This document shows, piece after piece, positions 6,934 through 62,911 of a stretch of 64,000 nt of DNA. The notes below the pieces were generated by a model, which saw only the letters and a program-made list of their open reading frames with translations, was not told the origin of the DNA and made no database searches. Numbering within the stretch: the stretch's first letter is position 1; every line of letters starts with the position of its first letter. This DNA comes from Candidatus Bathyarchaeota archaeon (GTDB lineage: Archaea; Thermoproteota; Bathyarchaeia; Bathyarchaeales; Bathycorpusculaceae): assembly GCA_963739305.1 (NCBI GenBank), contig CAVTZU010000018.1:64001-128000 (forward strand). The letters run 5' to 3'. The position numbers and the translations under genes are program-made.

Positions 6934-7848
6934 GTGTTTGACGTTGTTCCAGTGGGACACTTTGCTATAGACTCAATCTTTCTTCCAGGTCGCGATACTC
7001 CGTTCGTTGTCTTAGGCGGGTCAGTTACGTACGTTTCGTTGGCTGCAAGGCGGCTTGATGCCCAGGTTTCCGTGGTCTCCAAGATAGGCAAAGATTTTCC
7101 TGAAGCCTACAAGTGGTGGCTCAAACAGGAGGGCATCGACCTGTCAAACGTATCAAGAGACGAGAATAATGTGACAACACGGTTTGAGTTGAGATATGCC
7201 GAAGGGTTTTCTGATCGCAAGCTGCGGTGTGGAAGTCGGATGTCTCCAATCACTGTTGAGGAAATCCTTCATTTTCCAAAGGTTTTCGCCGTTCACATTG
7301 GGCCAATAGCAGGCGAGATAACGTATGAAGTCGTTGAGAATCTTCGAGGTCATTGCGAATTCATGTCTCTGGACCCGCAGGGACTCGTACGGCGTTTTGA
7401 TGATGAAGGAAACGTTAGCCTCGGCCCGTTGATGGATAAGCGGGTGCTAGGACACGTGGACGTTTTCAAGTCTTCCCTTGAAGAAATCAAAGCGATAAGT
7501 GGTCTTGATGAACTGGGCCATGCTGCAAAAGCCATTCATGATTATGGTGTTGACATAGTCATAGTTACGCTCGGAGAAAAAGGCGCTGCGGTTTCTGTTG
7601 AAGGCGCGATGCACAATGTTCCAGCATTCAAACCGGCGAAACTCGTTGATCCGACGGGAGCGGGAGACGCCTTCATTGGTGGTTTTTTGGCTGAATATGT
7701 GCGTGGCGAAGATTGCTCGTGGTGCTCATGCGTCGGAGCAGCAGTTTCTTCACTTGTCGTCGAAGGCGCGGGGCCAACGTTTTTAGGCGACAAAGACGAG
7801 ATCCACCGGAGAGCACGTTTTCTCTACGAAAAAGGAATTAAGGAATGA
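6934..7848 (+). CDS. PfkB family carbohydrate kinase
   Basis: GGSVTY, VTLGEKG, DPTGAGDAFIGG. Confidence 0.9.
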   Translation: MFDVVPVGHFAIDSIFLPGRDTPFVVLGGSVTYVSLAARRLDAQVSVVSKIGKDFPEAYKWWLKQEGIDLSNVSRDENNVTTRFELRYAEGFSDRKLRCGSRMSPITVEEILHFPKVFAVHIGPIAGEITYEVVENLRGHCEFMSLDPQGLVRRFDDEGNVSLGPLMDKRVLGHVDVFKSSLEEIKAISGLDELGHAAKAIHDYGVDIVIVTLGEKGAAVSVEGAMHNVPAFKPAKLVDPTGAGDAFIGGFLAEYVRGEDCSWCSCVGAAVSSLVVEGAGPTFLGDKDEIHRRARFLYEKGIKE

Positions 7849-7894
7849 AGTATATTCTATTGCATCCAAAACACGAATTTGAGAGGAACTGAAC

Positions 7895-8101
7895 TTGGGT
7901 CGCATCGGCAAAGGCGTGAAATGCAACGTGCAAGGTTGCGGTCAGGAGGCTGTTCGTTCCCTTTCAGCTGAAAAAGTGAAGCGTGCAGGTCTGAGAGTGA
8001 TCGACGAGAGGCATGCTTACCTTTGCAAAGAACATTACAAAGAGTACAAGAAAAAAACGAAGAAAGACAAACAAATCGAAAAGTGGCGGTACAACCCCTA
8101 A
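7895..8101 (+). CDS. Small basic putative Zn-finger protein
   Basis: C-x4-C...C-x2-H pattern, Lys-rich tail, tightly upstream of thrS. Confidence 0.65.
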   Translation: MGRIGKGVKCNVQGCGQEAVRSLSAEKVKRAGLRVIDERHAYLCKEHYKEYKKKTKKDKQIEKWRYNP

Positions 8102-8121
8102 ACGCGTTGCGGTGAGAATTT

Positions 8122-37208: not shown

Positions 37209-38570
37209 TTATCGCAGTTTTAGCAGAACCATTTCTGCTGCGAGAACCATTGGTTCCCACGTTTCGCAGACGGGGGGTGCATAAGCCGTATCTGCTTTTG
37301 ACAGGTCTTTTGCAGTCATTCCTCTTTGTATTGCTAGGGATATTGCGTTGATGCGTTGGGTGACTTCTTCTCCACCGATTATTTGGGCTCCAATTATCCG
37401 CTGTGTTTCTTTTTCGACGACGAGTTTGACTTTTATCGGAAGGGCTCCTGGGTAGTAGTCCGCTTTAGTCTTCGAGGTGATTGTGCCCGTGACGACTTCG
37501 ATTCTGTTCTTCCTTGCTGCAGCCTCGGTTAGTCCTGTCCATCCACAGTCTGTGTCAAAAAGCCTTGAGACTGCGGATCCTAGGGCGCCCGTGAAGAGTG
37601 AGTATCCTCCTGCGGCGTTTATGCCTGCGATTTTTCCGGTTCTCACTGCCACTGTGCCGAGTTGTGGGAGAGATGGTCTTTGGGTGACTATGTTTGTTAC
37701 CTCTGCGCAGTCGCCTACTGCGTAGGTGTCTCTGATGTTTGTCTCCATGCGTGCGTTTGTTCTTATTGCTTTGGTTTCGCCTAGTAAGATGCCGGCGTTG
37801 ACTGCGAGTTCTGTGTTTGCTCTTACACCGAAGGCGCTTAGGAATAGGTCAGCTTCGATTTTCTCTCCGCTTGCCATGATGCCTGTTACCTTGGTGGTTC
37901 CGAGGAATTCTTCGACGCATCTGTTGGTGAGTACAGTTATTCCCTTTTCCTCAAGTAAGTCTTGTACCATTTTCGCCATTTCAACGTCAAGTGGCAGGGG
38001 CAGTATCTGCGGCAGCATTTCGACGACCGTTACCTTTAGTCCTCTTTCGTGAAACGCTATGGCTGTTTCAAGTCCGATTAGTCCAGCTCCCATGACCACG
38101 GCGGTTTTCGCGCCTTTTCTTATCGCTTGATCTATCTTCTGTCCGTCTTCTAGGGTTCTGACTGAATAGACATCTTGTTTTTCTTTGCCTTTGATCGGTG
38201 GCGTGAAGGAGCTTGCTCCCGTGGCAATAATGAGGCTGTCATAGGGTAATGTTTCTGTCTTGTCGTCTTTTTCTGTTATTTGGAGTGTTTTCTTTGCGGA
38301 GTCAATTGCTGTGACCTTTGTTTCAGTTTTGAGGTTGATCTTCATCATTTGAAAGTATGGTGGCGCGAAGACTATGAGGTCGTTGAACCTTGGTATTTGG
38401 CCGCCTAGAACGAAGGGAAGGCCGCAGCGTGAGTATCCGGGGTGTTTCTCTTGGGTGATTATGGTTATCTCCGCTTGGCGGTCTGTCTTTCTTGCTGCTG
38501 CAGCGGCGTCTACGCCGGCTGCGTGGGCGCCGATGATGACTATCCGCCTTTGCGTTGACGTGGTTTTCAC
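37209..38570 (-). CDS. CoA-disulfide reductase / NADH oxidase family flavoprotein
   Basis: Single redox Cys YSRCGLP, IIATG, GAGLIGLE, YAVGDC, AYAPP. Confidence 0.88.
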   Translation of the reverse strand: MKTTSTQRRIVIIGAHAAGVDAAAAARKTDRQAEITIITQEKHPGYSRCGLPFVLGGQIPRFNDLIVFAPPYFQMMKINLKTETKVTAIDSAKKTLQITEKDDKTETLPYDSLIIATGASSFTPPIKGKEKQDVYSVRTLEDGQKIDQAIRKGAKTAVVMGAGLIGLETAIAFHERGLKVTVVEMLPQILPLPLDVEMAKMVQDLLEEKGITVLTNRCVEEFLGTTKVTGIMASGEKIEADLFLSAFGVRANTELAVNAGILLGETKAIRTNARMETNIRDTYAVGDCAEVTNIVTQRPSLPQLGTVAVRTGKIAGINAAGGYSLFTGALGSAVSRLFDTDCGWTGLTEAAARKNRIEVVTGTITSKTKADYYPGALPIKVKLVVEKETQRIIGAQIIGGEEVTQRINAISLAIQRGMTAKDLSKADTAYAPPVCETWEPMVLAAEMVLLKLR

Positions 38571-38977
38571 TTCTTGAGGGTTTTGTGATATTCAACTGCT
38601 TTATTGAAATCCATCGTGTTTGTTAGTTCTTGGTTGAGGTTTGTTGGTCTTATTATTAGGAGCCAGCCTTTGATGTAGGGGTCTTCGTTTAGTAGCTCGG
38701 GTTTTGATTGTACTTCTGTGTTTACTTCTTCAATTGTTCCGGTTATAGGTGCGACTAGATCTGATACTGCTTTGACTGATTCGACCGTGCCGTAGGGTTC
38801 GTTCTGTTTTATTTCGGATCCTGGGTTTGGTAGTTCTGCGTACACTATTTCTCTGAGTTGTTTCTGGGCGTAGTCGGTGATGCCGACGCGGACTTTGTCG
38901 CCTTCTATTTTGAGCCACTCAAATTCCTTCGTGTAATATAATCCGTCGGGTACTTCGTTTCCTTCTACTTTCACCAT
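38567..38977 (-). CDS. gcvH: Glycine cleavage H-like lipoyl carrier protein
   Basis: VGITDYAQ, VESVKAVSD (lipoyl Lys), NEDPY..GW. Confidence 0.93.
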   Translation of the reverse strand: MVKVEGNEVPDGLYYTKEFEWLKIEGDKVRVGITDYAQKQLREIVYAELPNPGSEIKQNEPYGTVESVKAVSDLVAPITGTIEEVNTEVQSKPELLNEDPYIKGWLLIIRPTNLNQELTNTMDFNKAVEYHKTLKK

Positions 38978-41246: not shown

Positions 41247-42741
41247 CTTGTCTTTTTCGGTGTCCGTTGAAGCTTTTGATGTAATCATGGACAAGATTCT
41301 TTTTCTGTAGGTATGACCCGTATCTGGCGAGGGCGCTCATTGCTCTTGCGGCGTCTTCTGGTGATGAGTATGCTGGAACGCCTAGTCTGTCGAACCTTAG
41401 CCGTGTGCTGATTGCCATTTCTGTTTCGCCTATGTCGCAGGCTACCATAGGTTTCTCGTACTTGCCTGCAACTGCTGCAACCTTGTCGATGTAGTCCTCT
41501 TTGATTGCTGGAGTGTGATGGAGACCCAGCATTATTACCCCGTTTATCTCGGGTTCTTCAAATACGATTTCAGTAGCAAGTTCGAACATTTCAGACGTGC
41601 CTGAACCCGTTATGTCCACAGGGTTCATGTTCGTGGCAAACTTTGGCAGTCTGCCTTCAGCTTTAAGTTCCTCGAACTTGGCGATTGTCTTTTCAGAGAA
41701 TCGTTTGACGTTCAATCCTTTCGACTCACACTCGTCAACGGCCATTATGCCGGGTCCCCCAGCATCCGTGACTATTCCGACGTTTTTACCCAAGGTGGGA
41801 ATCTGCATTGACAATGCCTTTCCTGCGTGGAAGAATTCGTCCATGTCTTGTGCCCTTAGAATCCCTGTTTGTTCGAAAACAGCATCATATATTCGGTCGG
41901 ATCCGGCCAATGCACCTGTGTGCGAAGCAGCAGCTCGAGCTCCCGCTTCTGTCCTTCCGGACTTCAAGGCTACAACGGGCTTCTTCTCGGTGATCTTATC
42001 GGCAGCTTCCATGAATCTTCTTCCAGATCTTATGTCTTCAACGTAAAGCAGTATTACACTCGTTTCGGTATCATAGTAGAGGTAGCGGAGCATTTCTGCC
42101 TCGTCTACGTCGATTTTGTTGCCGAAACTGACGAATTTGCTGACCCCAGTGTGTAAACCTGCAAGATAGTCAAGTGCTGCCACGCCGAAGGCTCCACTCT
42201 GCGTAACTATTGCTATGTTTCCAGGCATCGGGCGAGGTGTAGCAACAACTTCGTCTCCTGTCGTGAGAACTTTTGTTTCAGGAAGGAACAGCATGTCGAC
42301 GCCTGTTCTGGAATCATAGACACCCAGGCAGTTTGGCCCTAGGACCCGTATTCCCGCTTCTCGGGCAATTGTCGCTACTTGATTTTCGAGATCGTGGTTT
42401 CCGACCTCGCCGAAACCTGCGCTGATTATGACGACGTCCTTGACTTTTTTCACGACAGCATCCATCATTATCTGTGGGACGATGTCTGCAGGGACGACGA
42501 TGACTGCTAGCTCGAGTTCTCCTGGAATCTTCGTGATGGTTGGGTAACACTTGATGCCCAGGATTGAATCTTCATTCGGGTTGACCGCGAATATTTCACC
42601 CTTGAAAACCTGCCGCCGCTTGTTTTCGACGAAGTTTTTGAAGATGACCTGTCCTGCTTTTTCGACTTTTTTTGTTGCTCCGACGATCGCCACTGAACGT
42701 GGATTAAAGAAGGCGTTCAGCGCTTGCACTTTTTCTTCCAT
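41236..42741 (-). CDS. acdA: Acyl-CoA synthetase (ADP-forming) alpha subunit
   Basis: PRSVAIVGA, GPNCLG, TQSGA, SHTGALAG (phospho-His), NPVD. Confidence 0.9.
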   Translation of the reverse strand: MEEKVQALNAFFNPRSVAIVGATKKVEKAGQVIFKNFVENKRRQVFKGEIFAVNPNEDSILGIKCYPTITKIPGELELAVIVVPADIVPQIMMDAVVKKVKDVVIISAGFGEVGNHDLENQVATIAREAGIRVLGPNCLGVYDSRTGVDMLFLPETKVLTTGDEVVATPRPMPGNIAIVTQSGAFGVAALDYLAGLHTGVSKFVSFGNKIDVDEAEMLRYLYYDTETSVILLYVEDIRSGRRFMEAADKITEKKPVVALKSGRTEAGARAAASHTGALAGSDRIYDAVFEQTGILRAQDMDEFFHAGKALSMQIPTLGKNVGIVTDAGGPGIMAVDECESKGLNVKRFSEKTIAKFEELKAEGRLPKFATNMNPVDITGSGTSEMFELATEIVFEEPEINGVIMLGLHHTPAIKEDYIDKVAAVAGKYEKPMVACDIGETEMAISTRLRFDRLGVPAYSSPEDAARAMSALARYGSYLQKKNLVHDYIKSFNGHRKRQVKK

Positions 42742-43592
42742 CGCGGTTTTCCTCGTTGCTTCTTACAAGAACTATGGGTTTATGTTTTGCTCCATCTAGC
42801 ATTTCCCAGCTTACCTCGGTGAAGCCGACTTTGAACTTTTCCGCCATCTCCCAGACTGTTCGCCCTGTGCCAAAACCTCTGGAACGATTGGCAATCTCAG
42901 CGATCCTCAAGGATTGCTCAGCGTTAAGACTGCATCCTGCGACGGCTAGGGGAGTGGCTCTTTTTCTAAGCCTGAGAACTCGTCCGATGACGTATGTAAC
43001 GAAGCCTCCGCCTGATTGAATTCCTCTGGTAGTTGTTGGGCGGGGTGTGAAGTGGAAGTTTCTGAGCGAGTAGGTCTTGTCGGTGTCGACGATCATCACT
43101 GAGACTCTTTTTCCTAAGCGCGAAAGGATTTCTTTTCTGATCGTTTCAGCGATTTCTCCGGGATTTTTCAAGGGTAGACTGACGTATGAGTAGGGCAGGT
43201 TGCTTCCATCGATGGCGCCTTCGGATCCGAACATGAGCGTTTGGAGCAGCCCAGCTTGTTGCAGGGCGACTTGTTTGTGGCGGCTTCCTTCTATCGGATG
43301 GGTATTCTCGTATCTGTTTGAGTAGTCTGGCTTTGAGGTGGCAGGCTGGGCCTAGCACGTAGCCCCAGACTGTCCGCATCCAGATCGTGGCGACGAGTTT
43401 TGCTGTGAGTGTCGGCGCGGTTTGGTTTTCGTCTACTATGTTGTTTGTCGCGGTTGAGATGGCTTTTTCTGACAGGACGATTATGTCGTTGTTGGCTACT
43501 CTTCCATTTATGGCCTGGATGATTTGTTTGATGTAGTCTTGTCCTGGTCTCCAGTACTTTGTTTTGATTGGGAGAACTTTGTATTTGGTCAT
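42704..43592 (-). CDS. Coenzyme F420-0:glutamate ligase (CofE)-like protein, 1-nt frameshift near 43296
   Basis: TKYWRPG, VLSEKAISTA, GAIDGSNLP, MIVDTDKTY; removing one base gives YPSIEGSRHKQVAL. Confidence 0.75.
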
Positions 43593-46279: not shown

Positions 46280-47122
46280 CTAGTAGTCTGCTAAGCGCGC
46301 GATTGCACGAAAAGCAACTTGACGCACCCGCACGCTGTTATCGTGGTAGATGATGTCTCGACGTTGGTCCTTTAGGCTTGCACTGAACAAGGGGGGTCCC
46401 CGGTTCCAGTCTCTATTATTGTATTTCTTTTGGTACAAACTAATCGCTGTACGCAATTCATTTGCAGTCAGGCTTCCCTTTATAAGGTTTACACGATACG
46501 TCTTTTCGTAGCCTTTTCTAATAGCATTCTTCGTTTCTTCCATGGTAATGCTTTCCAGAATTTCAGACAGGTTCACCAAGATAGTGTGGGGGTTTTGGAT
46601 CTTAAGAGCGCGTCCTAAAGTGCTAAAGTCAACGTTTACCATCAAGGTGCCGTGATGAAGGATAGCATCATACAGTCTGTGTTGAGCGCTCCCAGAGATT
46701 TTCTTTCTCTCTACTACTATGTTTCCGTTATTGTTGCGAGCTTGAACGCTCAGCATCCCAAGTCCTTCGACGACTCCCCCGCAAAAGAAGCTGTAAGACC
46801 TTTCTACATTCTCGATACCAACGGCCAGAGAGGGCTTCCTGACAATTATCGAATAATTCACATTACCATAGTCATGATAAACAGCCCCACCTCCGGAGAC
46901 TCTTCTGAAGATTCTGATCCCCAGCTTTTCGCAGTCAACAATGCTAGTAACAGACTTGGGATCTTGGAAATGTCCAATGACGACGGCTGGCGGATTCTGC
47001 CACAGACGCAGAGTGTTGGGACCATTATTCTCCAGAACGGATCTTAAAATCGCTTCATCAATTGCCAGATTCATCGCAGGATCTTCGGAACTGTAGTCGA
47101 TCATTCGCCAGTTATCAGTCAT
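46280..47122 (-). CDS. lplA: Lipoate--protein ligase A catalytic domain
   Basis: NLAIDEA, RRVSGGGAVYHD, KKISGSAQ, HHGTL; ATG at 47122. Confidence 0.9.
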   Translation of the reverse strand: MTDNWRMIDYSSEDPAMNLAIDEAILRSVLENNGPNTLRLWQNPPAVVIGHFQDPKSVTSIVDCEKLGIRIFRRVSGGGAVYHDYGNVNYSIIVRKPSLAVGIENVERSYSFFCGGVVEGLGMLSVQARNNNGNIVVERKKISGSAQHRLYDAILHHGTLMVNVDFSTLGRALKIQNPHTILVNLSEILESITMEETKNAIRKGYEKTYRVNLIKGSLTANELRTAISLYQKKYNNRDWNRGPPLFSASLKDQRRDIIYHDNSVRVRQVAFRAIARLADY

Positions 47123-47157
47123 ATCTTGGGCACCTGTAATGAGTTTGGTGGAAGATC

Positions 47158-48240
47158 CTATTTTCCGGGCAATGCGGCCACAACTGCGTTTCTCAGGCAT
47201 TCCCTAGTGGGCAGGGTCTTATCAAATTTCAATTCTCCATTGATGATTATTGCAGGAATTCTGCTGCATTTTTCAGCATCTATAAGGGCTGAGGACAACT
47301 CTGGATAGACTCCATGCTGATTTATCCCCTTTCCTCTCATCCAGACTCTCACTGTGATGTCATCTTGCAAGCCCGACGTGACATCGTTGACAAGATTGAT
47401 GAGCTTACGGCACATTGAAGTCGGAGGATAAGCAACAAAAACTTCAAGCGACGCTTTTCCCATCCCGACGAAGAAGGGTTCTATCCCGTGCACGTTCCAT
47501 TTCTCAAGGTTATATTTGGCTCTGTACAGCAAATTAGTCGATTTCTGTTCGTCTTCTGTTAATTTCTTTTTCAATTCGAAGACTATTCCCAACTTCTTCT
47601 CAAAGCCGTCTATAAGAGCTGTCTTTGCTTCTTCCATCGAAACGTCTTTTCTTAGTTGGCGTTTCAGCGATGTTATCATCAGCTTCTGTTCCGTTGGCTT
47701 TTCAGTTTTGATCATTTTGTTGTAAGCGTTCACGTCAGTATTAACGAGCAGAGTTCCTTGAAATAGAAGGAAATCGTGAAACCATTTTGGCAAAATCCCA
47801 GTCATTCTTCGTTCGCCAATATGAATTCCATCGGCATTCGCCTCAAGTTTGTCACTGAATTTTCGGAGCCCTTCAACGATTGCTGCGTTCAAAATAAAAT
47901 ACTCTGACAGGACAGGCGGGTAATCCGTAGTTCGCGTGTTGAAAAGTGCGGCATTCGCTGTAACAGCAAAATTCAAACTCCCCATATCCATGTAGAAAGG
48001 GTCGGCTGTGACTGATATTGCTCTGATGACTTCAACACCGTGTTTCCTGCATTCCTTTTGGTTGACGTCATCCTTGTATGAACTGCCCGATCCAATAATC
48101 ACAGAGGCTGGGCCTCGCCATAGCCGCAGTGTGTTCGGAGTCAAATTCTCTCTTCTGCTTCTAAAAATGGCCTCATTAATTGCCAGATCCATTCTCGGGT
48201 CGGCTGAACCGAAGTCAAGTAATCTCCATGTCTCAGCCAA
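47158..48240 (-). CDS. Degenerate LplA-like domain fused to a C-terminal thioredoxin-like domain
   Basis: WRLLD...PNTLRLW LplA scaffold with altered catalytic motifs; tail LEVFVAYPPTSMC...IPAIIINGE. Confidence 0.75.
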   Translation of the reverse strand: MAETWRLLDFGSADPRMDLAINEAIFRSRRENLTPNTLRLWRGPASVIIGSGSSYKDDVNQKECRKHGVEVIRAISVTADPFYMDMGSLNFAVTANAALFNTRTTDYPPVLSEYFILNAAIVEGLRKFSDKLEANADGIHIGERRMTGILPKWFHDFLLFQGTLLVNTDVNAYNKMIKTEKPTEQKLMITSLKRQLRKDVSMEEAKTALIDGFEKKLGIVFELKKKLTEDEQKSTNLLYRAKYNLEKWNVHGIEPFFVGMGKASLEVFVAYPPTSMCRKLINLVNDVTSGLQDDITVRVWMRGKGINQHGVYPELSSALIDAEKCSRIPAIIINGELKFDKTLPTRECLRNAVVAALPGK

Positions 48241-48964
48241 GATTGTTCACCCCAAAGTAGGGACACTTGTTTCCTAAACATTCTTTGTTGAGGTTTCTGA
48301 AATAGCAAGGGCGTGGATCTATCGAGTTGAGGGGTCTTATGTTAAATTCTCGTTCGAGGATCTCTGTTGCCTTCTGTACCGCTGAAAAAGTGCTTGCTTT
48401 GCAGCAACGCGGACCGCCAATCTTTGCGATCATGTGAAGGGATTCAGATACAGCTTCCATTGAAAGCGTCCGTTCTTTGTCTGATAGCATGTTGGCTTTG
48501 GTTGCAATGCTCAGGGCTATGCCTACTCCCGCGGCAGCCCCACAGACACCCCAAAGTCCACACGATGCAAGAAGTACTTTTCTTCCTCTTCTTATCGCTT
48601 CGTCAAATGCTGAATCGTTGATCCCAAATGTGCCCAAGTTTCTCCAAGCAGCTAGTAAGGCGCAGCTTACGACGTAGTGGTGCTCAGGGCCATGCATTTG
48701 GACTGCAGGATGCTTCATCAAGAGGAGAACAACTTTCATGGGATCCGTTTCTTTCGTGGCTCCGCAGACTTTGTGGACAAGCGTTTCAGGAGTGGCTAGC
48801 CTGCAGCTTTCACAAATGTAGTGTCCTTCTTCACAGACGTAGTCTGCTTTCTCAGTTTTTCCGCAAAAGGAACATTTCGTTGCTTCCGAGGTCGATCGCA
48901 AGGGCTTTCCACAGACCACACAATGGAATTCTTCCAGTTCTTCTGGAGACTGTTTCTTCTTCAG
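48233..48964 (-). CDS. DUF5714-like Cys-rich metal-binding protein
   Basis: CVVCG, CSFCG, CEEGHYICESC, MHGPEHH, CGLWGVCG, GGPRCCK, CLGNKCPY; probable CTG start after GGAGGG. Confidence 0.8.
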   Translation of the reverse strand: MKKKQSPEELEEFHCVVCGKPLRSTSEATKCSFCGKTEKADYVCEEGHYICESCRLATPETLVHKVCGATKETDPMKVVLLLMKHPAVQMHGPEHHYVVSCALLAAWRNLGTFGINDSAFDEAIRRGRKVLLASCGLWGVCGAAAGVGIALSIATKANMLSDKERTLSMEAVSESLHMIAKIGGPRCCKASTFSAVQKATEILEREFNIRPLNSIDPRPCYFRNLNKECLGNKCPYFGVNNLG

Positions 48965-48988
48965 TGTCTTTCCCTCCGCGCGCGATGC

Positions 48989-50916
48989 TCATCCCTTAAT
49001 CTTGGCTAGAGGCTTTGGCTTACTCAGCAACAGTAAAGCGGAATTGATTACCACCGATATGCATCCGGCTTCTGCAAGAACAACTGCTAGGACTGGATTC
49101 AGGATGCCAAAAGCGGCTAAACTCAATGCAACTATGTTCCAAATGAAGGCGTAAACTATGTTCCCCTTCATTCTGTTAAATGCCTTCCGACTCAGGCTAA
49201 TCGCATACTCAACCTTTGTCAAGTCGTCTCCAAGGAGAGCTACGTCAGCAGTCTCCACGCCACATCGCTGCCAGCCGCACCCATAGCAAACCCAACATCC
49301 GAATTAGCCAACGCAGGAGCATCATTCACGCCGTCACCAACCATCGCGACTATACTGCCTTTTCTCAGCTCCCCAATGGCCTCAACTTTCTGTTCTGGTA
49401 AAAGCTCAGCGCGGTACTCATCGACCCCGATCTGTTCAGCGATGGATTTGGCAGTCCTTGCGTTGTCGCCAGTTATCATGGCAGTTTTGACTCCTAAACG
49501 CTTAAGCCTTAGTATAGCTTCCAAGGAATTCTCCCTGACCGTGTCAGCCACCACGATGACGCCAATTACATTTTTGTCAAGTGCCACGGGAATAGCTGTT
49601 TTTCCCTCGCTTTCAACTTTACTCATCAATTGACTCGCTTCTTCTGAAATCATCCGTTCCCATCATCTTGGTTCCAATCAGGATGTGCTTGTTTCCGTAA
49701 TGAGCATCCACGCCGTGCCCTGGAACAGTTTTGAAGTCTGTAGGATCAGGAATTTTCATGCCTCATCTCAGTTGCCTTAGCGATGATGGCTTTGGACAGG
49801 GGATGCTCTGAGAATTTCTCGGCAATTGCTGCATACTTGATCGTGTCCGCTTCAGAGTAATTTCCGAAGGTTTTTATCTCAACAACCTTAGGTTCGCCTA
49901 GGGTTAACGTGCCAGTTTTGTCGAAGGCCACCAGCTTAATGTCCTTTAGCTTCTCGATGTGTGTGCCGCCCTTGATTATTATGCCGTTCATGCTGGCATT
50001 ACCGATAGTGCCCGCAACAGCGACTGGAACAGCTATGGAAAGCGCGCAAGGGCATGCGACTAAGAGAACAGTCACGGTTCTGGCCAATGCCACGTCAAAA
50101 CCAAGTGCGAAGTAACTCACCGCAAAGACAGAAGATGCCAAAACTGCCATGATTGGCAAGAAGTAAGTGGTAAACCGATCTGCAATGTTCTGTATCGGTG
50201 CTTTTTTCTCTTGAGCTTCTTCAACAAGTTGAATGAGATGAGCAAGCGTAGTGTCCTCAGCGATTTTTTCAACTTTGATTTCCAGTGCTCCACGTTCATT
50301 GAGTGTTCCAGCAAATGTGCGGTCTCCCACCGTCTTTTCTACAGGAATCGACTCGCCAGTTATAGTTGCCTGATTAACCGTGCTGTGTCCGGAAATCACT
50401 GTTCCGTCAACGGGTATTTTGTCGCCTGGTTTGACTAAGAACGATTTCGTCCATCTTGACCTCGTCTACGGGTATTTCAACTTCGGTGCCGTCTCGACGT
50501 ATTCGAGCAGTGGTGGGGCTCATTTTAATGAGCTTCTCAAGTGCGCCTCTTGTTCTATGGATGATGTAGTCTTCAAGCGTCATACCTGCAAGTATTATGA
50601 ACGCCACTATCGCTGATGCCGTGAGGTAACCAACTGCTTCTGCCGTGCCAGTGGCCGATGCCGAAGGCAGTACGAGACCAGCTATTACTGAAATGAAGAT
50701 GGCGATAGTTGCAAACAATTGAGCGGTAACGTTCCCATGCCGCAGGGATCGAATGCCATGCAAATAGATGCGGTAGCCCAAGGCAACGGCGATCAAAGTT
50801 AAAGCAATGCTAATTTCATGCGCATAAGCTACTTGAGTCCCAGATATTAGGGCCCCTGCTAGAATGAATAGCCCAAGTGAAGCGACAAGAAGTACGCCTT
50901 TAAAATGCTCTCTCAT
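48989..50916 (-). CDS. P1B heavy-metal-translocating ATPase, broken by four 1-nt frameshifts
   Basis: TGES, ACPC, DKTGT, SEHPL, TGDN, GDGVNDAP across consecutive ORFs; shifts near 50437, 49763, 49660, 49258. Confidence 0.88.
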
Positions 50917-51173
50917 TGGATTTCCTCTCTCGATACTATCTCGACTTGGTAGCCTAACTTTTCAATGCGCTCAGTGATCTTGGAGAAGCCAATTTTCTGT
51001 GTGTCGTATTCTATGCTGACTTTGCCGGTTATCTCGTCAACTTTGACTTTCGATACTCCGCTTAACCTTGCAAGTGCGTGCCTGAGGTTTTCTGCTGCAA
51101 AGTCTGAAGCACATGCTTTGCACCCTGTGCAGTCTATTTTCGCGGTATTCAAGATCATTTTTTCAACAGTCAC
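50913..51173 (-). CDS. HMA-domain metallochaperone (CopZ-like) with CxxCxxC
   Basis: IDCTGCKAC...L.GVSKVKVD...IEYD...IEKLGY. Confidence 0.8.
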   Translation of the reverse strand: MTVEKMILNTAKIDCTGCKACASDFAAENLRHALARLSGVSKVKVDEITGKVSIEYDTQKIGFSKITERIEKLGYQVEIVSREEIQ

Positions 51174-51224: not shown

Positions 51225-51554
51225 TTAACGGCATGTCACATGCTCAATAGCTTCCTTTGTCAAAGTGCCGACAACCTCAGGAGTCAAGCTATCGATAACA
51301 TTGAAAACTCTCTTATCAACAATCGAATACATTCTTTTAGTTCCATCCTTTCGGCACCTAACTATCCCCACATCTTTCAGAATTTTCAGATGCCGAGACA
51401 CGACTGGCTGCATCAATCCAACATACGGTATTATTTCACACACGCACTTCTCCTTTGTGCGCAGGAATTCGAGTATTTCAAGTCTCGTCTGGTCAGAGAG
51501 GGCATTGAAGATTCTTGCCTTCAACCTAATTTGCCTGTCAGTTTCGTGATGCAT
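51225..51554 (-). CDS. arsR: ArsR/SmtB family repressor (CVC motif)
   Basis: FNALSDQTRLEIL, EKCVCEI, QPVVSRHLKIL. Confidence 0.92.
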   Translation of the reverse strand: MHHETDRQIRLKARIFNALSDQTRLEILEFLRTKEKCVCEIIPYVGLMQPVVSRHLKILKDVGIVRCRKDGTKRMYSIVDKRVFNVIDSLTPEVVGTLTKEAIEHVTCR

Positions 51555-51627: not shown

Positions 51628-52002
51628 ATGTCTGACATCAAGGTCACCGAAAAAGGGCAAAAGATCCTGGCCGTTTGGCATGGAGTTCCACGCAAAGAAA
51701 TCGAGTGGCATCCCACGGTTGAAAAAGAGCTATGCATAGGATGCGGGTTATGTGTGCTTGGTTGCGGAGCCAATGTTTATGCGTTCGATTTCAGTGACAA
51801 CAAACCAGTCGTCGTCGCACCTCTCAACTGTAAAGTAGGCTGCGTAACCTGCGCAAACACTTGCCCAGTGCATGCGATAAGCTTCCCGCCGCTTTCATAC
51901 TTGCATAAAATAATCAAGGAAAAAAAGGTTCTCACCACCAGCAGAGACGAACTCAAGAAGAGTGCAGACAGAATAGGTTACACCTACAAGGACGTGGAAT
52001 GA
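51628..52002 (+). CDS. 2x[4Fe-4S] ferredoxin family protein
   Basis: CIGCGLCVLGC, CKVGCVTCANTCP. Confidence 0.88.
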   Translation: MSDIKVTEKGQKILAVWHGVPRKEIEWHPTVEKELCIGCGLCVLGCGANVYAFDFSDNKPVVVAPLNCKVGCVTCANTCPVHAISFPPLSYLHKIIKEKKVLTTSRDELKKSADRIGYTYKDVE

Positions 52003-52006
52003 TACG

Positions 52007-52762
52007 TTGAAAGGAGAATCAGACGTGCCTCAAACATCAAACTTCCAATATTCTCTTTCGCTCAAGGAAACACTTGGACTGAAGTGGTCACCAGTCGCGG
52101 TCAAACTGGTCAAACCTGATGAACCCATCAACGAAATCCCTCCAAAGTCTCCCAAGAGGCTACGGTACTGTCAACTTCTGATGGAAGGAAAAAGGGGAAA
52201 AAGCGCGACTCTAACAAACGAAAACATTGCTTGTCCTGCTGCCGCGGCAGCTTTAGGGCTTATGCCTCTTCCTGAGAAGATCAGCAGTGGGAAGATGCTT
52301 AAAACACTCGGCCTGTTTGAGTCTGAAGAGGCTGCAGCAAAGACGATGGCGCAAATGTCAAGAATAAAACTGGGAGATGTCAAAGCAATCGCTGCTGCTC
52401 CACTTGAAAATGCGACATTCAGACCAGACGTCGTCATAATTGAGGACAACCCCGAAAGAATAATGTGGGTAAATCTGGCCGCAATTCACGAAACCGGAGG
52501 ACGTCTTTCTTTCAGCTCTGCCGTTTTTCAAGCTTGCTGCGTAGATGTGACGGTCATTCCATATCTTACCAAGAATGTCAACGTTAGCCTAGGCTGTTAT
52601 GGCTGCAGAGATGCCACCGACATAGCAGACGATGAATGTCTTGTTGGAATACCAATGGAAAAACTGGACGAAATAATCACATCGCTTAAAGCCCTAGCCC
52701 AGAAAGCCATGCCCGAAGCCCGAAACAAAGGAGTCTACAACCAGTTCGTCAAGGTTCAATAG
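52007..52762 (+). CDS. DUF169 family protein
   Basis: SPVAVKL, RYCQ, CPAAAAALG, PDVVII, ACC, SLGCYGCR. Confidence 0.88.
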   Translation: MKGESDVPQTSNFQYSLSLKETLGLKWSPVAVKLVKPDEPINEIPPKSPKRLRYCQLLMEGKRGKSATLTNENIACPAAAAALGLMPLPEKISSGKMLKTLGLFESEEAAAKTMAQMSRIKLGDVKAIAAAPLENATFRPDVVIIEDNPERIMWVNLAAIHETGGRLSFSSAVFQACCVDVTVIPYLTKNVNVSLGCYGCRDATDIADDECLVGIPMEKLDEIITSLKALAQKAMPEARNKGVYNQFVKVQ

Positions 52763-52793
52763 ACGCAGCTTATACACAAAAGAAGGTTTGAGC

Positions 52794-53165
52794 ATGGAAA
52801 AAGTCAAGGTAAGACTGGAAATCTATGAGGACGACCCGTTTGGAAGCACTTGCTGCGGCCCTGGTCCCCGAGTGACTTCTCTTGCAGCAGTAGAAAAGCT
52901 GCGGAGAATGTTGGAAGAACGGAGCGAAATAATGAACAGACTTTCAGAAGAATACAAAGACAGCGTCACCATAAAAAGAGATACCATTAACCAGAAACGA
53001 TGGGATTACCCAGAGTACGTAATGAGGCTAATGTTAGACAGCAAACCAACACCTTACATATTCATCGACGGGGAACCCGTCATAGTCGGCAAATTTCCAT
53101 CCTACGAAGAATTCATAGCGTTGCTGAAAGCAAGTTTGAGAAATGAGCAAAAACAAGGCCAATAG
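52794..53165 (+). CDS. ArsD-like thioredoxin-fold metallochaperone
   Basis: LEIYEDDP..TCCG N-terminus; PYIFIDGEPVIVGKFPSYEE resembles ArsD LPLLLLDGETVMAGRYP. Confidence 0.65.
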   Translation: MEKVKVRLEIYEDDPFGSTCCGPGPRVTSLAAVEKLRRMLEERSEIMNRLSEEYKDSVTIKRDTINQKRWDYPEYVMRLMLDSKPTPYIFIDGEPVIVGKFPSYEEFIALLKASLRNEQKQGQ

Positions 53166-53514
53166 GCAAGACTTGATGGATAGAGTTATCAGAATCAGAA
53201 GCTGGCAAGAATTCAAGCGCTTAGCTATCAATCTCAAACCTGAGTCCGTGGTTTACAACATAGAACAGAACGGTCTTTCTCCAGAAAGAGAGCTGACCTG
53301 TTTGAGGTTGATCATGCCGACTCAAGAAGTAGCGCGCGCGCTCTACTACATTTTCCTTGACTTCCCAAGAGAGGACGACTGCGGGAAACAGGCCATTCCA
53401 ATACGAAAGGATAGAAAAGGGAACGGATGCCTGGAGGACAAAGATATAATAGATTTTCTCAAAACCCAACTAGAAATAAAGGATTTGACCGTCTGTTCGT
53501 ACTGGACTATCTAG
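53143..53514 (+). CDS. Hypothetical protein
   Basis: ORF overlapping the end of the ArsD-like gene; no family recognised. Confidence 0.55.
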   Translation: MSKNKANRQDLMDRVIRIRSWQEFKRLAINLKPESVVYNIEQNGLSPERELTCLRLIMPTQEVARALYYIFLDFPREDDCGKQAIPIRKDRKGNGCLEDKDIIDFLKTQLEIKDLTVCSYWTI

Positions 53515-58429: not shown

Positions 58430-58717
58430 CAGAAGAAACATACATGGGAGTTCCACGAAGCAAAATCCCTTGGTGCCCAAAGATCGATACAGCAAAATGT
58501 AACCAGTGCGAGGGCGACCCGCAATGCCTCAGATTCTGCCCCCATGGAGTGTTCGAATACAACAAGGAAAAGAAGGAATTCATCGTCAAAAACCCAGAAC
58601 AACTGCGTCGTGTTCTGCAGGGCATGCTCCAAAGTCTGCGCCGCGGACGCACTCAGTTTTCCAGAGAAGAAGGAAATTCTGAAGCTGATAAAAAATGTCC
58701 GAGAAGAAAAAAAGTAA
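58426..58717 (+). CDS. 2x[4Fe-4S] ferredoxin, 1-nt frameshift near 58597
   Basis: CNQC...CLRFCP; removing one G gives NPNNCVVFCRACSKVC...REEKK stop. Confidence 0.82.
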
Positions 58718-59099
58718 GTACATAATCATCCCGTGTAGCGGGATCGGAAAGGCACTCGGAACGATAACGCGTAGAGCCACGTACATCGTGACCGAAGAAC
58801 TGTTGCCGAATGATACCGATTCTATTTGTCTTCCTTTGCTCACAATCGAAGACGAGGAGACTGTGCGGAAAATAAGAGAGAACCCTTGCATAACCCTAGA
58901 TGGCTGCGTTGCTCAATGTGCCAAGAAAAATGTTGAACACCATCACGGAGAACTCAAAGGAAGCATCAGGATCCTGGACGTGATCAAGGAGAATCCTAAG
59001 CTTAAGCCTGGAACGGTACTGGACATCGGACCTGACGGTGAGAAACTGGCAAGAAAAACAGCCGAAAAAGCCGTCAAAATCATAGGAGATAAAAATTGA
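58695..59099 (+). CDS. DGC-domain putative zinc-binding protein
   Basis: PCSG, ICLP, LDGCVAQCA. Confidence 0.88.
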   Translation: MSEKKKSKYIIIPCSGIGKALGTITRRATYIVTEELLPNDTDSICLPLLTIEDEETVRKIRENPCITLDGCVAQCAKKNVEHHHGELKGSIRILDVIKENPKLKPGTVLDIGPDGEKLARKTAEKAVKIIGDKN

Positions 59100-59503
59100 A
59101 GATCAAACGCAAAATCGGCTTAATCTCCTGCAGCGGAGAAGGGCTTCCTGAAGGAATGATATCCCGCGTAGCAACTCGAAGAATACTAGAAGAACGCGAC
59201 GACGTCGTAACAATCTGCCTTCCTCTCTTTCTCGCAGGCGGACAAGAAGAGAGAGACTTCGCCAAGGACAATCCTTGCATAACCGTTGACGGCTGCGACA
59301 AGATGTGTGCCGCCAAAGGCGTCCAAATGTACGGCAAAGTGCATCCCAAATCGTCAATAGTCATATCAGACATTGCAGAAAAACATAAACATCTTAAACC
59401 CAAATCAAAAAGCAGAATAGAACCTCAAGACGAGAAGCTTGTTAAAGAAACCATGAAACGCATTACTGAGGAGATAGACAGAGTAGAGGAGGAAGAAGAG
59501 TAG
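59096..59503 (+). CDS. DGC-domain putative zinc-binding protein
   Basis: SCSG, ICLP, VDGCDKMCA. Confidence 0.88.
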   Translation: MKIKRKIGLISCSGEGLPEGMISRVATRRILEERDDVVTICLPLFLAGGQEERDFAKDNPCITVDGCDKMCAAKGVQMYGKVHPKSSIVISDIAEKHKHLKPKSKSRIEPQDEKLVKETMKRITEEIDRVEEEEE

Positions 59504-59504
59504 C

Positions 59505-60311
59505 ATGTCAATAGAAAAGAAAGTTGCCGTTGCTGTTTGCACAGGCATGGACCGACCGCTTGCCACAGTGTCCAGATACGCAGGATACCATGTTCTAGAA
59601 AAACTGAGGCCAGACAAGACTGTCTTGCTTTGCACTCCAGCCCTAATAAGTGGCGTTAAAGAGGACGTGACCTTTGCCAAAGAGAACCCTATATTGGTCA
59701 TCGATGGCTGTGAAGAGAGATGCTGCGAAAAGATAGTCAATGAAGCGAAAGGACAGATCAAAGCCATCATAAACGTTGAAGACGTCCTGAAAGAACACGA
59801 GGACTTGCAGCCTGAGTCGAGAGCTAAGCTTGGGCCGAAAGGAATGAAACTTGCGGAAATAGTCGGAGAACTGGCCGCGAAGAAGGTCGATGAAATACTC
59901 GCAGGGGTGAAAGAGATGGAAGATAAGAAAGTCGCTATCGTAGCCTGCACTGGCATGGGAAAAGCACTTGGGACAGTAGCTCGACAGGTCGCCTTCAAGG
60001 TCGTGGATGAACTGCGACCTGGAAAAGCAGTGCTGATATGTATTCCATCTCTCACCGCAGGAGTCGGAGAATACAAGAACCTGTTGCAGAAGTATCCTTC
60101 CATCGTACTGGATGGTTGCGTGGAAAGGTGTGCCACTAAAATCATTTTCAAGAACAAAGGCATTATGAGGGCTAAAGTTTTCATGCCTCAAATGGTCGCA
60201 AAGTATGGCTTAAAGCCCCTGTCCCGAACTGACCTCGGTGAAGAAGGGGAGAAACTTGTTACGAAAATAGCTGAAGAAGTAGCCGCGTTAGTTGACCAGC
60301 TTTCAAGGTGA
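59505..60311 (+). CDS. Tandem double DGC-domain protein
   Basis: CTG...LCTP...IDGCEERCC and CTG...ICIP...LDGCVERCA. Confidence 0.88.
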   Translation: MSIEKKVAVAVCTGMDRPLATVSRYAGYHVLEKLRPDKTVLLCTPALISGVKEDVTFAKENPILVIDGCEERCCEKIVNEAKGQIKAIINVEDVLKEHEDLQPESRAKLGPKGMKLAEIVGELAAKKVDEILAGVKEMEDKKVAIVACTGMGKALGTVARQVAFKVVDELRPGKAVLICIPSLTAGVGEYKNLLQKYPSIVLDGCVERCATKIIFKNKGIMRAKVFMPQMVAKYGLKPLSRTDLGEEGEKLVTKIAEEVAALVDQLSR

Positions 60312-60315
60312 AAAG

Positions 60316-60789
60316 ATGGAACAATTAGAACTGAAAGTTGACAAATATACGTTCATCGTTCCTAAAGGTCTCTACTACAACGAGAATGATTTTTGGGCCA
60401 GAATTGAGGGCAAGATAGCAACCGTCGGCATAACGTCCTATCTGCAAAATCATTTGAGTGACATAGTCTTCGTCTCTCTCCCACAAATCGGCACCAAAAT
60501 TGAACAATTCGGTGAAGCCGGATCCTTTGAATCAGTGAAGGCTGCTCTGGACGTTATATCACCTGTTTCAGGCTCAATAGTTGAAGTCAACAATGAATTA
60601 GTGAATTCGCCTGAACTTGCAAATTCAGATCCATATGGCAGAGGCTGGTTCGTGAAGATCGAGCTGACAGATTTTGAGTCAGACAAAGAGAATCTCATAG
60701 ACGCAGAAGGCTACTTTGAGGTCATGAAGAAAAAAGTGGAAAAAGAACACGAGCAACTGAAACAAAAGCGAGCTGTAAACACGACTTAG
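60316..60789 (+). CDS. GcvH-like lipoyl carrier protein (second copy)
   Basis: VGITSY, FESVKAALDVISPVSG (lipoyl Lys), NSDPYGRGW. Confidence 0.9.
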   Translation: MEQLELKVDKYTFIVPKGLYYNENDFWARIEGKIATVGITSYLQNHLSDIVFVSLPQIGTKIEQFGEAGSFESVKAALDVISPVSGSIVEVNNELVNSPELANSDPYGRGWFVKIELTDFESDKENLIDAEGYFEVMKKKVEKEHEQLKQKRAVNTT

Positions 60790-61122: not shown

Positions 61123-61557
61123 TTGGAAAAGACTAAAGTCATTTTTCTATGTGTAGGAAATTCGGCACGGAGCCAAATGGCTGAAGCATTCCTAAGAAAA
61201 TATGCAGGTAATCATTTCGAGGTCTACAGTGCAGGCTTCGAACCCCGACCCATCCACCCTTACACCATCAAGGTGATGAGAGAACTGGGATATGACTTGA
61301 GTGGCCAGCATCCAAAGGAGTTGAAACAGTATCTTGGAAAGATACATTTCGGGATAGTCATAACAGTATGTGAAAAAGCAGAAAAGACGTGCCCTATGAT
61401 ACCAGGGGCATCCACTAGATTGTATTGGCCATTCGAAGACCCAGCAGCATTTCAAGGAACTGAAGAGGAGAAATTAGCCAAATTCCGAGAAGTTCGAGAT
61501 AAAATCAACGAAAAGATAAAAACATGGCTGAAAGACAGAGGCATCGCGGAAAACTGA
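61123..61557 (+). CDS. arsC: Arsenate reductase ArsC (LMW-PTP fold, thioredoxin-coupled type)
   Basis: FLCVGNSARSQMAE, TVC...TCP, WPFEDP. Confidence 0.88.
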   Translation: MEKTKVIFLCVGNSARSQMAEAFLRKYAGNHFEVYSAGFEPRPIHPYTIKVMRELGYDLSGQHPKELKQYLGKIHFGIVITVCEKAEKTCPMIPGASTRLYWPFEDPAAFQGTEEEKLAKFREVRDKINEKIKTWLKDRGIAEN

Positions 61558-62416: not shown

Positions 62417-62911
62417 ATGGAAAAGATAAAAGTTCTTTTTTTGTGTGAACATAATTCCGCCCGATCGCAGATGGCTGAAGGTTTGCTTAGGCATCTGTAC
62501 GGTGAAAAGTATGAAGTGTTCAGCGCGGGCGCAAATCCGACGCAAGTCAATCCTTTTGCCATTAAGGTTATGGCCGAGATAGGGATAGATATTTCCAAGC
62601 AGACTTCCAAGAGCATTGAAGAGTTCCGAAACAAGGAAATCGACTTAGTCGTATCAGTGTGCAGAAGCAGTGCCAAGCTAATGTGTTCATTGTGTTCTTC
62701 ACCGATAGTCATGGGTAGACCAGAGATAATCAACACGACAATACCCGGAGCAAAACACTATCTTCACCATGGATTCAACGATCCTTCTGAGGTGGACGGG
62801 AGTGACGAGGAAAAAACCAAGGCCTTCCGACGCACAAGAGATGACATCAAACAGTGGATAATCGATAAATTTGCCGATCCAAAGACAGTAAACTCGGACA
62901 ATGATTTATAG
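62417..62911 (+). CDS. arsC: Second ArsC / LMW-PTP family protein with Cys-containing insertion
   Basis: FLCEHNSARSQMAE, VSVC, MCSLC insertion, FNDP. Confidence 0.8.
   Translation: MEKIKVLFLCEHNSARSQMAEGLLRHLYGEKYEVFSAGANPTQVNPFAIKVMAEIGIDISKQTSKSIEEFRNKEIDLVVSVCRSSAKLMCSLCSSPIVMGRPEIINTTIPGAKHYLHHGFNDPSEVDGSDEEKTKAFRRTRDDIKQWIIDKFADPKTVNSDNDL

Follow-up and report, generated by a model that had tools for sequence, protein, structure and literature searches.

The window analysed here is a stretch of 64,000 nucleotides (nt) from a Candidatus Bathyarchaeota archaeon (contig CAVTZU010000018.1), in which the gene at 47158..48240 on the minus strand encodes a protein of 360 amino acids (aa) that combines a degenerate paralogue of the lipoate-protein ligase LplA with a thioredoxin-like domain, and which is hereafter referred to as LplA*-Trx. 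The gene starts with TTG, ends with the stop codon TAG at 47158-47160, and lies between two genes of the same strand, one for a Cys-rich DUF5714 protein upstream (48233..48919) and one for a second, intact LplA downstream (46280..47122). The DUF5714 protein has a zinc-ribbon-like N-terminus and a vicinal Cys pair in the sequence RCCKAS; it matches Pfam PF18978 (E value 2e-56) and, below the family cutoff, the MbdU-related model of NCBIfam (5e-47), and the 3' end of its gene overlaps the start of LplA*-Trx by 8 nt. The frame of this gene runs upstream to about 48985 (48920-48985), in frame after the stop of the preceding ATPase gene and without a canonical start, and the extension holds the first Cys of the N-terminal CxxC knuckle (…EEFHCVVCGKP…); the true start may be non-canonical, or the gene may have lost it. 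The open reading frame (ORF) listed for the neighbouring LplA spans 46280-47200; its true start is the ATG at 47122, with GGTG 8 nt upstream, and 35 nt separate this start from the stop of LplA*-Trx. The neighbouring LplA carries the intact motifs RRVSGGGAVYHD, KKISGSAQ and HHGTL, matches PF21948 and PF03099 (Pfam E 1e-48) without a match to PF10437, and has orthologues of 241-260 aa.

The degenerate LplA-like half and its family

The LplA-like domain of LplA*-Trx comprises aa 1-250 (47491..48240, minus strand). It is matched by the Pfam family LplA-B_cat (PF21948) at aa 14-214 (E 2e-21), the last 110 aa of the protein remaining without a match, and is 32% identical to the neighbouring LplA across 249 aa (BLASTP, E 7e-42). 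The LplA of Thermoplasma acidophilum (2ars, E 2e-16) aligns with its GEKKI opposite GERRM of LplA*-Trx, and a profile match of the N-terminal 250 aa to this enzyme reaches E 1.4e-31. An AlphaFold2 model of the whole protein, based on a 38-sequence alignment, has a mean predicted local distance difference test score (pLDDT) of 91.4 and a predicted template modelling score (pTM) of 0.90, and a Foldseek search with the N-terminal part of the model returned T. acidophilum LplA (2c8m/2art) as the top match (E 5e-21, TMt 0.85).

The fold of an active LplA is therefore present, but the RRxxGGGxxxxD loop, the catalytic lysine and a score above the hidden Markov model cutoff are not. At aa 73-85 (nt 47986-48024), the position of the lipoate-binding loop, RRVSGGGAVYHD of the neighbour is replaced by RAISVTADPFYMD; RKKISGSAQ is replaced by ERRMTGILP within GERRMTGILP (aa 142-151; nt 47788-47817), so that R145 occupies the column of the catalytic lysine (K133 in E. 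coli and K145 in T. acidophilum numbering); LHHGTL is replaced by LFQGTL (aa 159-164); and the further degenerate motif IGSGSS lies at aa 49-54. The alignment confirms the differences between the two genes that had been read from the DNA alone in an earlier note on the window (the loop change, KKISGSAQ to RRMTGILP and HGTL to QGTL). The scores of LplA*-Trx stay far below the curated ligase cutoffs (TIGR00545, 54.9 bits against 280; NF053750, LplA_large, 57.4 against 480), and no LipL, LipM or LipB model of NCBIfam matches it at E <= 0.01.

These differences are not peculiar to the window. A search of 5.8 billion proteins gave 72 clusters at 90% identity, the window's own included, with identities of 29-89%, a length of 335-371 aa in almost every case, and the two-part layout in common; truncating decay was not seen among them. 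The few named clusters come from Bathyarchaeota, Jordarchaeaceae and a 'Methanobacteriota' metagenome-assembled genome (MAG), and the public annotation of family members reads 'lipoate-protein ligase A' or 'hypothetical protein'. Motif columns were counted in a MAFFT alignment of all 72 clusters with the neighbouring LplA as the reference. The GGG of the lipoate-binding loop is kept in none of the 69 clusters that cover the loop, the FQ of the GxFQ motif in 0 of 67, and 70 of 72 have Gln as the second residue of the HH pair. Arg fills the Lys column in 50 clusters, Lys in 15, Ile in 3, Thr in 2, and Gly and Met in one each, so that this column is basic in 65 of 72; this pattern indicates a column that is free to vary (relaxed), not one uniformly lost. 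The earlier statement that the catalytic lysine had been lost thus holds for the window's protein with its R145 and fails for the 15 relatives that keep it.

The alignment also indicates that part of the LplA scaffold is retained. Residues E23, W41, R73, Y83 and D85 are constant in all sequences that cover them, apart from one exception each at E23, W41, Y83 and D85, and S76 is constant in 65 of 68, all six residues being present in the intact neighbour. The sole conserved Cys of the LplA-like half, C64, is likewise found in the intact neighbour and none lies near the Lys column, which, together with the lack of a model match, argues against membership in a LipL/LipM clade, an alternative that the earlier note had raised. 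In LplA, the RRxxGGGxxYxD loop sandwiches lipoyl-AMP, and the catalytic lysine, without which neither reaction step proceeds, hydrogen-bonds the lipoyl-AMP carbonyl, according to PMC7186572. Given these roles, and since the motifs are gone family-wide, the family of the window's gene has very probably lost ligase activity. The substitutions cannot be put down to chance, because identical ones recur in the 72 clusters.

Pairwise dN/dS of LplA*-Trx is 0.34 against the orthologue at a related locus, L001, and 0.24 against that at L002 (the loci are described below), and is equal in both domains; the corresponding values are 0.20 and 0.25 for the neighbouring LplA, and 0.23 and 0.15 for the DUF5714 gene. 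These ratios indicate that LplA*-Trx is a real gene under purifying selection and not a pseudogene, and where random decay among the homologues had been considered in the earlier note, conservation was found instead. Taken together, LplA*-Trx is a selected and almost certainly non-ligase paralogue of LplA, i.e. a pseudo-ligase.

The thioredoxin-like tail and related fusions

The second domain, at aa ~258-360 (47161..47469, minus strand), was assigned by profile comparison, AlphaFold2 and Foldseek. When a profile built from nine tails (those of the window and related loci) was compared with the PDB, only two matches were convincing, 1nho (MTH895, E 2.7e-5) and 1fo5 (MJ0307, E 3.3e-5), with T274 and C277 aligned to both Cys of CPYC in these structures. 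The secondary structure elements follow each other in the AlphaFold2 model as beta1-alpha1-beta2-alpha2-beta3-beta4-alpha3. Modelled separately, the tail has a pLDDT of 82, and its listed top Foldseek matches are all thioredoxins or thioredoxin-containing entries (E about 1e-4, TM 0.55-0.6), one of them a complex of thioredoxin with ArsC. The tail is accordingly a thioredoxin fold in which T-x-x-C replaces CxxC and a single Cys is conserved. The earlier description of the protein as a degenerate LplA fused to a thioredoxin-fold domain is thus borne out by the LplA-B_cat match and the 1nho/1fo5 profile matches, and the structure predictions agree for each domain.

Three motifs characterise the tail: PPTSMC (aa 272-277; nt 47410-47427), which places T274-S-M-C277 where a CxxC redox motif would stand; WMRGKG (aa 300-305), part of an inserted WMRGKGxxQHG loop; and IPAIIINGE (aa 328-336), of the cis-Pro type, the proline being presumably in the cis state. 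T274, W300, R302, K324, P329, N334 and G335 are each conserved in 72 of 72 clusters and C277 in 71, and this conservation points to a functional thioredoxin domain with a working site around C277. The tail contains exactly three Cys, C277, C325 and C348, as had been noticed earlier together with the IPAIIINGE motif, but only C277 is conserved throughout the family: C325 and C348 occur jointly in only 18 of the 72 clusters, with R/Q/E and D/V/N elsewhere (codons 47197-47268), and they may form a subclade-specific disulfide or an extra thiol site.

Curated cutoffs for small thioredoxins (PF13192, TIGR00411, TIGR00412 and NF047660) are not reached by LplA*-Trx, the only match being NF047660 (HUIPC; 20.9 bits against 105, E 3e-4), and an Atlas search with the thioredoxin domain gave a lead-level HUIPC cluster (score 0.86). 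PF13192 is not reported by Pfam for LplA*-Trx and is precomputed on 5 of the 72 relatives. The TxxC pattern together with the invariant R302 recalls the peroxiredoxin site (PxxxTxxC with a conserved Arg), but the spacing here is PPTxxC, and Pfam gives no peroxiredoxin match; a peroxiredoxin motif TxxU is listed in PMC13188914. Two assignments of the tail were rejected. The ArsD-like character proposed in the earlier note did not hold, as the Pfam scan gives no ArsD family and only one Cys is conserved; the tail resembles instead a small thioredoxin of the MJ0307/MTH895 type with T-x-x-C. An LplB-type (PF10437) tail was set aside because Pfam has no match and the beta-alpha-beta-alpha-beta-beta-alpha tail matches thioredoxins, the C-domain of LplA being described as three helices and a three-stranded sheet (PMC7186572).

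The domain is not confined to LplA-like fusions. A profile search of 1.84 billion representative proteins with the thioredoxin domain found 69 proteins at E <= 0.001, of which, by length and sequence, about 24 are LplA-like fusions of 314-381 aa with the domain at the C-terminus and about 35 stand alone, with lengths of 80-118 aa; the remainder are fragments or two spurious repeats. TxxC occurs in 45 of the 69 and CxxC in 3, and the family signature can be written as PPTxxC, (W/Y)xRG and IPAxxxNG. None of the stand-alone members reaches an NCBIfam cutoff; they weakly match the HUIPC, MJ0307, MTH895/ArsE and SaoT thioredoxin-like families, are annotated as hypothetical proteins, and come from Bathyarchaeia, Asgardarchaeia or a bacterium. 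One further protein, P0114 (169 aa, from a bacterial MAG), joins a P-loop of the ArsC/low-molecular-weight (LMW) phosphatase type (CGGNSARS) to a PPTxxC domain, its phosphatase part looking truncated.

Three thioredoxin fusions, L007:4661-5683, P0109 and P0121, have intact ligase motifs (RRISGGGAVY.D and (K/R)K.SG), so the domain is also an accessory of apparently active ligases. The first of these lies in a Bathyarchaeia locus with three LplA-Trx paralogues around DUF5714 (L007, 4661-8539), where the intact copy (4661-5683, minus strand) is accompanied by two degenerate copies in tandem (6442-7497 and 7499-8539), followed by ACR3, with ArsR and ArsP upstream. In a tree of catalytic domains (38 rows selected from about 100, arbitrarily rooted), the intact enzymes, namely three fused to the thioredoxin domain, two with an LplB domain and five with the catalytic domain only, form one clade (support 98/96), and the window's family forms a separate one (100/99); the degenerate lineages stand on an open backbone with four long-branch rows, and the order of events is not resolved. 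Among 4402 candidates, no longer protein joining LplA*-Trx to LplA, DUF5714 or GcvH was found at E <= 0.001, which is weak evidence.

Conserved operon and gene neighbourhood

A scan of species-representative genomes gave ten loci (L001-L010), the ORFs of which were scanned with Pfam and NCBIfam. L001-L007 hold full relatives from Bathyarchaeia, a Nitrososphaeria-labelled MAG, Hadesarchaea and Jordarchaeia, and in L010 a contig end leaves only a C-terminal fragment. At L008 (Heimdallarchaeota) and L009 (a bacterium), the match is to an ordinary LplA, and the counts below are over nine loci, i.e. the window, L001-L007 and L010. DUF5714 lies directly upstream of LplA*-Trx in six of the nine (the window, L001-L004 and L007), in four of them with the 8-nt overlap; this side is cut by contig ends in L005 and L010, and DUF5714 is absent upstream in L006. 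An LplA consisting of the catalytic domain only follows directly downstream in five (the window and L001-L004), which agrees with the earlier reading of the intact neighbour, matched by no PF10437, as a catalytic domain alone and shows that the pairing is conserved. By gene order and overlap, DUF5714, LplA*-Trx and LplA form a conserved and translationally coupled operon. One to four DGC proteins and a GcvH adjoin upstream in three loci (L001, L002 and L004), so that a DGC-GcvH block there adjoins DUF5714-LplA*-Trx-LplA, and the cluster-associated GcvH proteins retain the lipoyl-lysine motif. L006 has the LplA*-Trx gene alone, between two ArsR genes and ACR3, and in L005 it stands beside an LplA with its own LplB-type domain.

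Arsenic and metal genes are frequent around these genes. ArsR occurs within 7 kb in six of the nine loci, ACR3 above the TIGR00832 cutoff in five (L002, L004, L006, L007 and L010), and an HMA protein or a P1B-type ATPase in three; in L002, as in the window, ArsR, HMA and ATPase genes flank the module, and ArsP is found in L007 and L008. At the Heimdallarchaeota locus (L008, 5251-14135), an ArsR-ArsP-Thioredoxin_3-ArsR-ACR3 cluster encloses both DUF5714 and an LplA of the ordinary kind that carries an LplB-type domain, which extends the association of ligase and arsenic genes beyond the pseudo-ligase family. When the DUF5714 protein and one DGC protein were compared with PDB sequences, only chance-level matches were obtained, and an Atlas search with DUF5714 returned DUF5714 clusters only.

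In the window itself, an ArsR/SmtB regulator (51225-51554), an HMA protein (50913-51173) and a P1B-type heavy-metal ATPase precede DUF5714 on the strand of LplA*-Trx. The ATPase, which stands between the HMA gene and DUF5714, is broken into four ORFs that do not share one frame (50407-50916, 49746-50399, 49240-49653 and 48989-49258, minus strand), and is either a pseudogene or affected by assembly indels. Three genes with four DGC domains (PF08859; 58695..60311, plus strand) lie directly upstream of a GcvH-type lipoyl carrier (GcvH#2, 60292..60789, plus strand), which has N- and C-terminal extensions and the lipoyl-Lys motif ESVKA, matches Pfam GCV_H (E 5e-37) and TIGR00527 (132.5 bits, above the cutoff of 115.85), and is 43% identical to the other GcvH of the window, GcvH#1. 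Downstream of GcvH#2, two LMW-phosphatase/ArsC-like genes (61123-61557 and 62417-62911, plus strand) flank a PhoU_div gene; both match Pfam LMWPc and, with 134 and 110 bits, stay below the arsC_pI258_fam cutoff of 174. No P or T protein of glycine cleavage was found within the window. GcvH#1 (38567-38977, minus strand) overlaps by 4 nt with a flavoprotein like CoA-disulfide reductase or NADH oxidase (37209-38570), which is below all NCBIfam cutoffs, and the two could form an NAD(P)H:lipoyl-GcvH redox pair.

Other genes of the window were also recorded. Divergently from ArsR (51628-53165, plus strand) run genes for a ferredoxin of the 2x[4Fe-4S] type, a DUF169 protein and a protein of 125 aa with the vicinal-Cys motif STCCGPG (52788-53165); the last has a weak C-terminal match to thioredoxin_3/MTH895-ArsE (E 0.005-0.009) and is more ArsD-like than LplA*-Trx. 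A small protein without a family match (53143-53514, plus strand) is 29% identical (E 2e-7) to the product of L004 11973-12308, a gene that directly follows the catalytic-domain-only LplA of that locus. A CofE-like F420-0:gamma-glutamyl ligase (42704-43592, minus strand) is represented by the overlapping ORFs 43146-43592 and 42704-43234, each a partial PF01996 match, and forms a second apparent frameshift in the window.

Possible roles and comparison with known systems

Several lines of earlier work bear on the function of such a protein. In Pseudodesulfovibrio mercurii ND132, an arsenic-induced operon contains ArsR, ArsP, ArsE (a PF13192 thioredoxin-like protein) and a DGC protein (PF08859) (bioRxiv 10.1101/2022.10.17.512643), which ties DGC proteins and small ArsE-type thioredoxins independently to arsenic. 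MbdU is a DUF5714-related selenoprotein with the motif CU, HUIPC is a thioredoxin-like selenoprotein, and many such selenoproteins are implicated in mercury or arsenic resistance (PMC13188914). Protein-bound lipoamide has been reported to reduce a mycobacterial thioredoxin-like protein, thioredoxin and glutaredoxins (PMC3426790). In the literature searched, no paper on DUF5714 was found; the matches listed describe no LplA-thioredoxin fusion, supplements lying outside the search, and no lipoate-ligase or GcvH cluster in arsenic islands; and a query that combined the DGC domain and arsenic mostly brought up papers on diguanylate cyclases or on arsenic in general. The text of PMC10332631 available, which deals with archaeal ligases, does not mention thioredoxin, Bathyarchaeota or arsenic.

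Motif loss across the family, purifying selection, a retained scaffold, a thioredoxin domain that looks functional, the operon order and the neighbourhood, together with the P. mercurii and lipoamide reports and with P0114, lead us to infer that the pseudo-ligase is an adaptor that docks lipoyl-GcvH so that its arm comes close to Cys277 and can take part in the exchange of thiols or metalloids, a reading to which we assign a probability of roughly 0.4. The toxicity of arsenite is classically ascribed to the binding of dihydrolipoamide. The neighbouring LplA would lipoylate a dedicated GcvH; the retained LplA scaffold of the pseudo-ligase would dock holo-GcvH, with the (dihydro)lipoyl-lysine arm held near Cys277; the protein-bound dithiol would then be coupled to thiol-disulfide or thiol-metalloid exchange, for instance the capture, hand-off or release of As(III); and the DUF5714 and DGC proteins would be further Cys-rich partners. 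A number of observations weigh against such a role. No arsenic genes lie near LplA*-Trx in L005 (Hadesarchaea), and neither ArsR nor ACR3 was found within 14 kb in L001; in the window, the DGC-GcvH block (58695-60789) is about 10 kb away and on the opposite strand. Since thiol proteins accumulate in resistance islands, gene context is weak evidence by itself, and the lipoate-binding loop, which normally covers the lipoyl moiety, has been rebuilt, so the lipoyl arm may no longer bind there.

A possible but less probable role, not mutually exclusive with the adaptor role, is that of an LplB surrogate or 'prozyme', in which LplA*-Trx would form a heterodimer with the neighbouring LplA, its LplA-like half being a dimerisation scaffold and its thioredoxin domain replacing the accessory LplB so as to enable or redox-gate the formation of lipoyl-AMP. 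The earlier note had proposed both kinds of role, a pseudo-ligase that binds lipoyl domains and brings a redox or metal-binding module, or a replacement for LplB. Archaeal ligases are typically bipartite LplA-LplB enzymes (PMC10332631), the neighbouring LplA lacks PF10437 in all five loci where it lies directly downstream, and tblastn with two LplB-type domains against the window and all loci matched only the two source genes, with no LplB-like sequence in the window, L001-L004, L006 or L007. Moreover, L007:4661-5683, P0109 and P0121 carry the thioredoxin domain where LplB is fused in Lpl(AB), the stand-alone copies mirror free LplB, and redox-sensitive ligases are reported in LplA1 and LplA2 of Staphylococcus aureus (PMC12440151). 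The LplA adjacent to LplA*-Trx in L005, however, already has an LplB-type domain of its own, L006 and L010 have no adjacent LplA, and the fold of the tail is thioredoxin and not that of the LplA C-domain. Lpl of Mycoplasma hyopneumoniae shows that full activity is possible with just the catalytic domain (PMC7186572), and the change of an LplB-less LplA into an octanoyltransferase has happened repeatedly in archaea (PMC10332631). That T274, C277 and R302 are so strictly conserved points to chemistry rather than to a purely structural role, and the missing fusion of LplA* to LplA counts, weakly, against the surrogate as well.

That the protein is a lipoyl-cycle enzyme with altered chemistry, for example an amidotransferase of lipoyl or octanoyl groups, a lipoamidase, or a ligase with some other acyl group as its substrate, and that it works with Arg/Lys145 and possibly Cys277, seems unlikely. 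Members of the LplA family have repeatedly switched reaction type (PMC10332631); the fold and the pocket residues E23, W41, R73, S76, Y83 and D85 are kept, the arrangement of the two domains is confidently predicted (pTM 0.90), and position 145 is mostly basic. Yet position 145 is Ile, Thr, Gly or Met in 7 of 72 clusters, the GGG loop is never kept, the one conserved Cys of the LplA-like half is common to the intact neighbour, and the match to LipL, LipM and LipB is absent and that to TIGR00545 insufficient. A decaying duplicate of lplA with a tail of translated junk would account for the loss of canonical motifs, and two other genes of the window, those of the P1B-ATPase and the CofE-like protein, look frame-broken; but this idea has next to no chance of being right and was ruled out by the occurrence of 72 clusters at full two-domain length in several archaeal lineages, by dN/dS of 0.24-0.34, by eight tail positions conserved in 71-72 of 72 clusters, and by the confidently predicted fold and the conserved operon order.

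Going beyond the adaptor role, the operon might be the core of an undescribed lipoate-based system of metalloid handling in anaerobic archaea, a doubtful extension in which As(III), or some other thiophilic metal(loid), would be bound by the dihydrolipoyl dithiol of a dedicated GcvH. In this scheme, the pseudo-ligase would have switched from writing lipoate to reading the arm, with Cys277 as a third sulfur ligand or an exchange thiol, and the metalloid would be passed among the carrier, DUF5714, DGC proteins and the ACR3, ArsP or P1B pumps, or arsenic would be stripped off poisoned lipoyl proteins. If true, this would be the first case of a ligase turned into a 'reader' of the lipoyl arm, and also the first arsenic resistance module that depends on lipoate. 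The ligase annotation of the family is probably wrong as to enzyme activity, and the proteins form a small unnamed family with a defined signature. What is new is the conserved DUF5714/LplA*-Trx/LplA context with DGC proteins and a dedicated GcvH amid arsenic and metal resistance genes, none of which the earlier note had described; as a module of such islands in Bathyarchaeia, Jordarchaeia and relatives, it would bear on the ways in which anaerobes, when exposed to metalloids, shield their protein-bound lipoate or put it to use, and on what DUF5714 and DGC proteins, both of them widespread, do. The family also offers a clear example of how pseudoenzymes evolve, L007 holding one intact and two degenerate paralogues.

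Among known systems, the LplA-LplB pair of T. acidophilum (2ars/2art/2c8m and 3r07) gives the best sequence and structure match to the N-terminal 250 aa, and its archaeal catalytic domain likewise works with a separate accessory polypeptide; LplA*-Trx differs in the absence of GGG loop, HH pair and catalytic Lys, in having a thioredoxin and not LplB as the extra domain, and in being itself the partner of another, intact LplA. In Plasmodium, the second LplA paralogue reportedly cannot adenylate, the reaction depends on redox state, and the paralogue keeps its lysine. The two proteins there, LplA1/LipL1 and LplA2/LipL2, resemble the present pair as two unequal LplA paralogues of which one may be accessory and not a bona fide ligase (PMC3426790). 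They are unlike it in that the paralogue has no thioredoxin domain and belongs to the metabolism of mitochondria. The arsenic metallochaperone ArsD, the thioredoxin-like fold of which lacks CxxC, binds As(III) through its cysteines, namely a vicinal Cys-Cys and a third Cys, and is encoded in ars operons; the tail of LplA*-Trx has no such Cys motif and no Pfam ArsD match. The closest relatives of the tail are the small thioredoxins MJ0307, MTH895 and ArsE (1fo5, 1nho; TIGR00411/TIGR00412; PF13192) and HUIPC, with which it agrees in fold and length, in the cis-Pro/NG beta-hairpin and in where the active site lies, proteins of the ArsE type also standing beside DGC proteins in arsenic-induced operons (bioRxiv 10.1101/2022.10.17.512643); the tail is distinguished by T-x-x-C in place of CxxC or UxxC, by the inserted WMRGKGxxQHG loop and by the fusion to an LplA-like domain. 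The lplA2 operon of S. aureus (GcvH-L, LplA2, SirTM and Macro) likewise unites a dedicated GcvH-type carrier and a dedicated ligase in one stress operon, where protein-bound lipoate is non-metabolic and protects against oxidants and the ligases are redox-sensitive; as described in PMC12440151, it is controlled by ADP-ribosylation and directed at the oxidative burst, not at metal(loid)s, and it contains neither a pseudo-ligase nor a thioredoxin domain, nor DUF5714 or DGC proteins. Finally, the relays from lipoamide to thioredoxin involve free-standing CxxC partners that act on metabolic E2 subunits and have no LplA-like docking module, but they resemble what is proposed for Cys277 in that a bound dihydrolipoyl arm donates electrons to a protein of the thioredoxin fold (PMC3426790).

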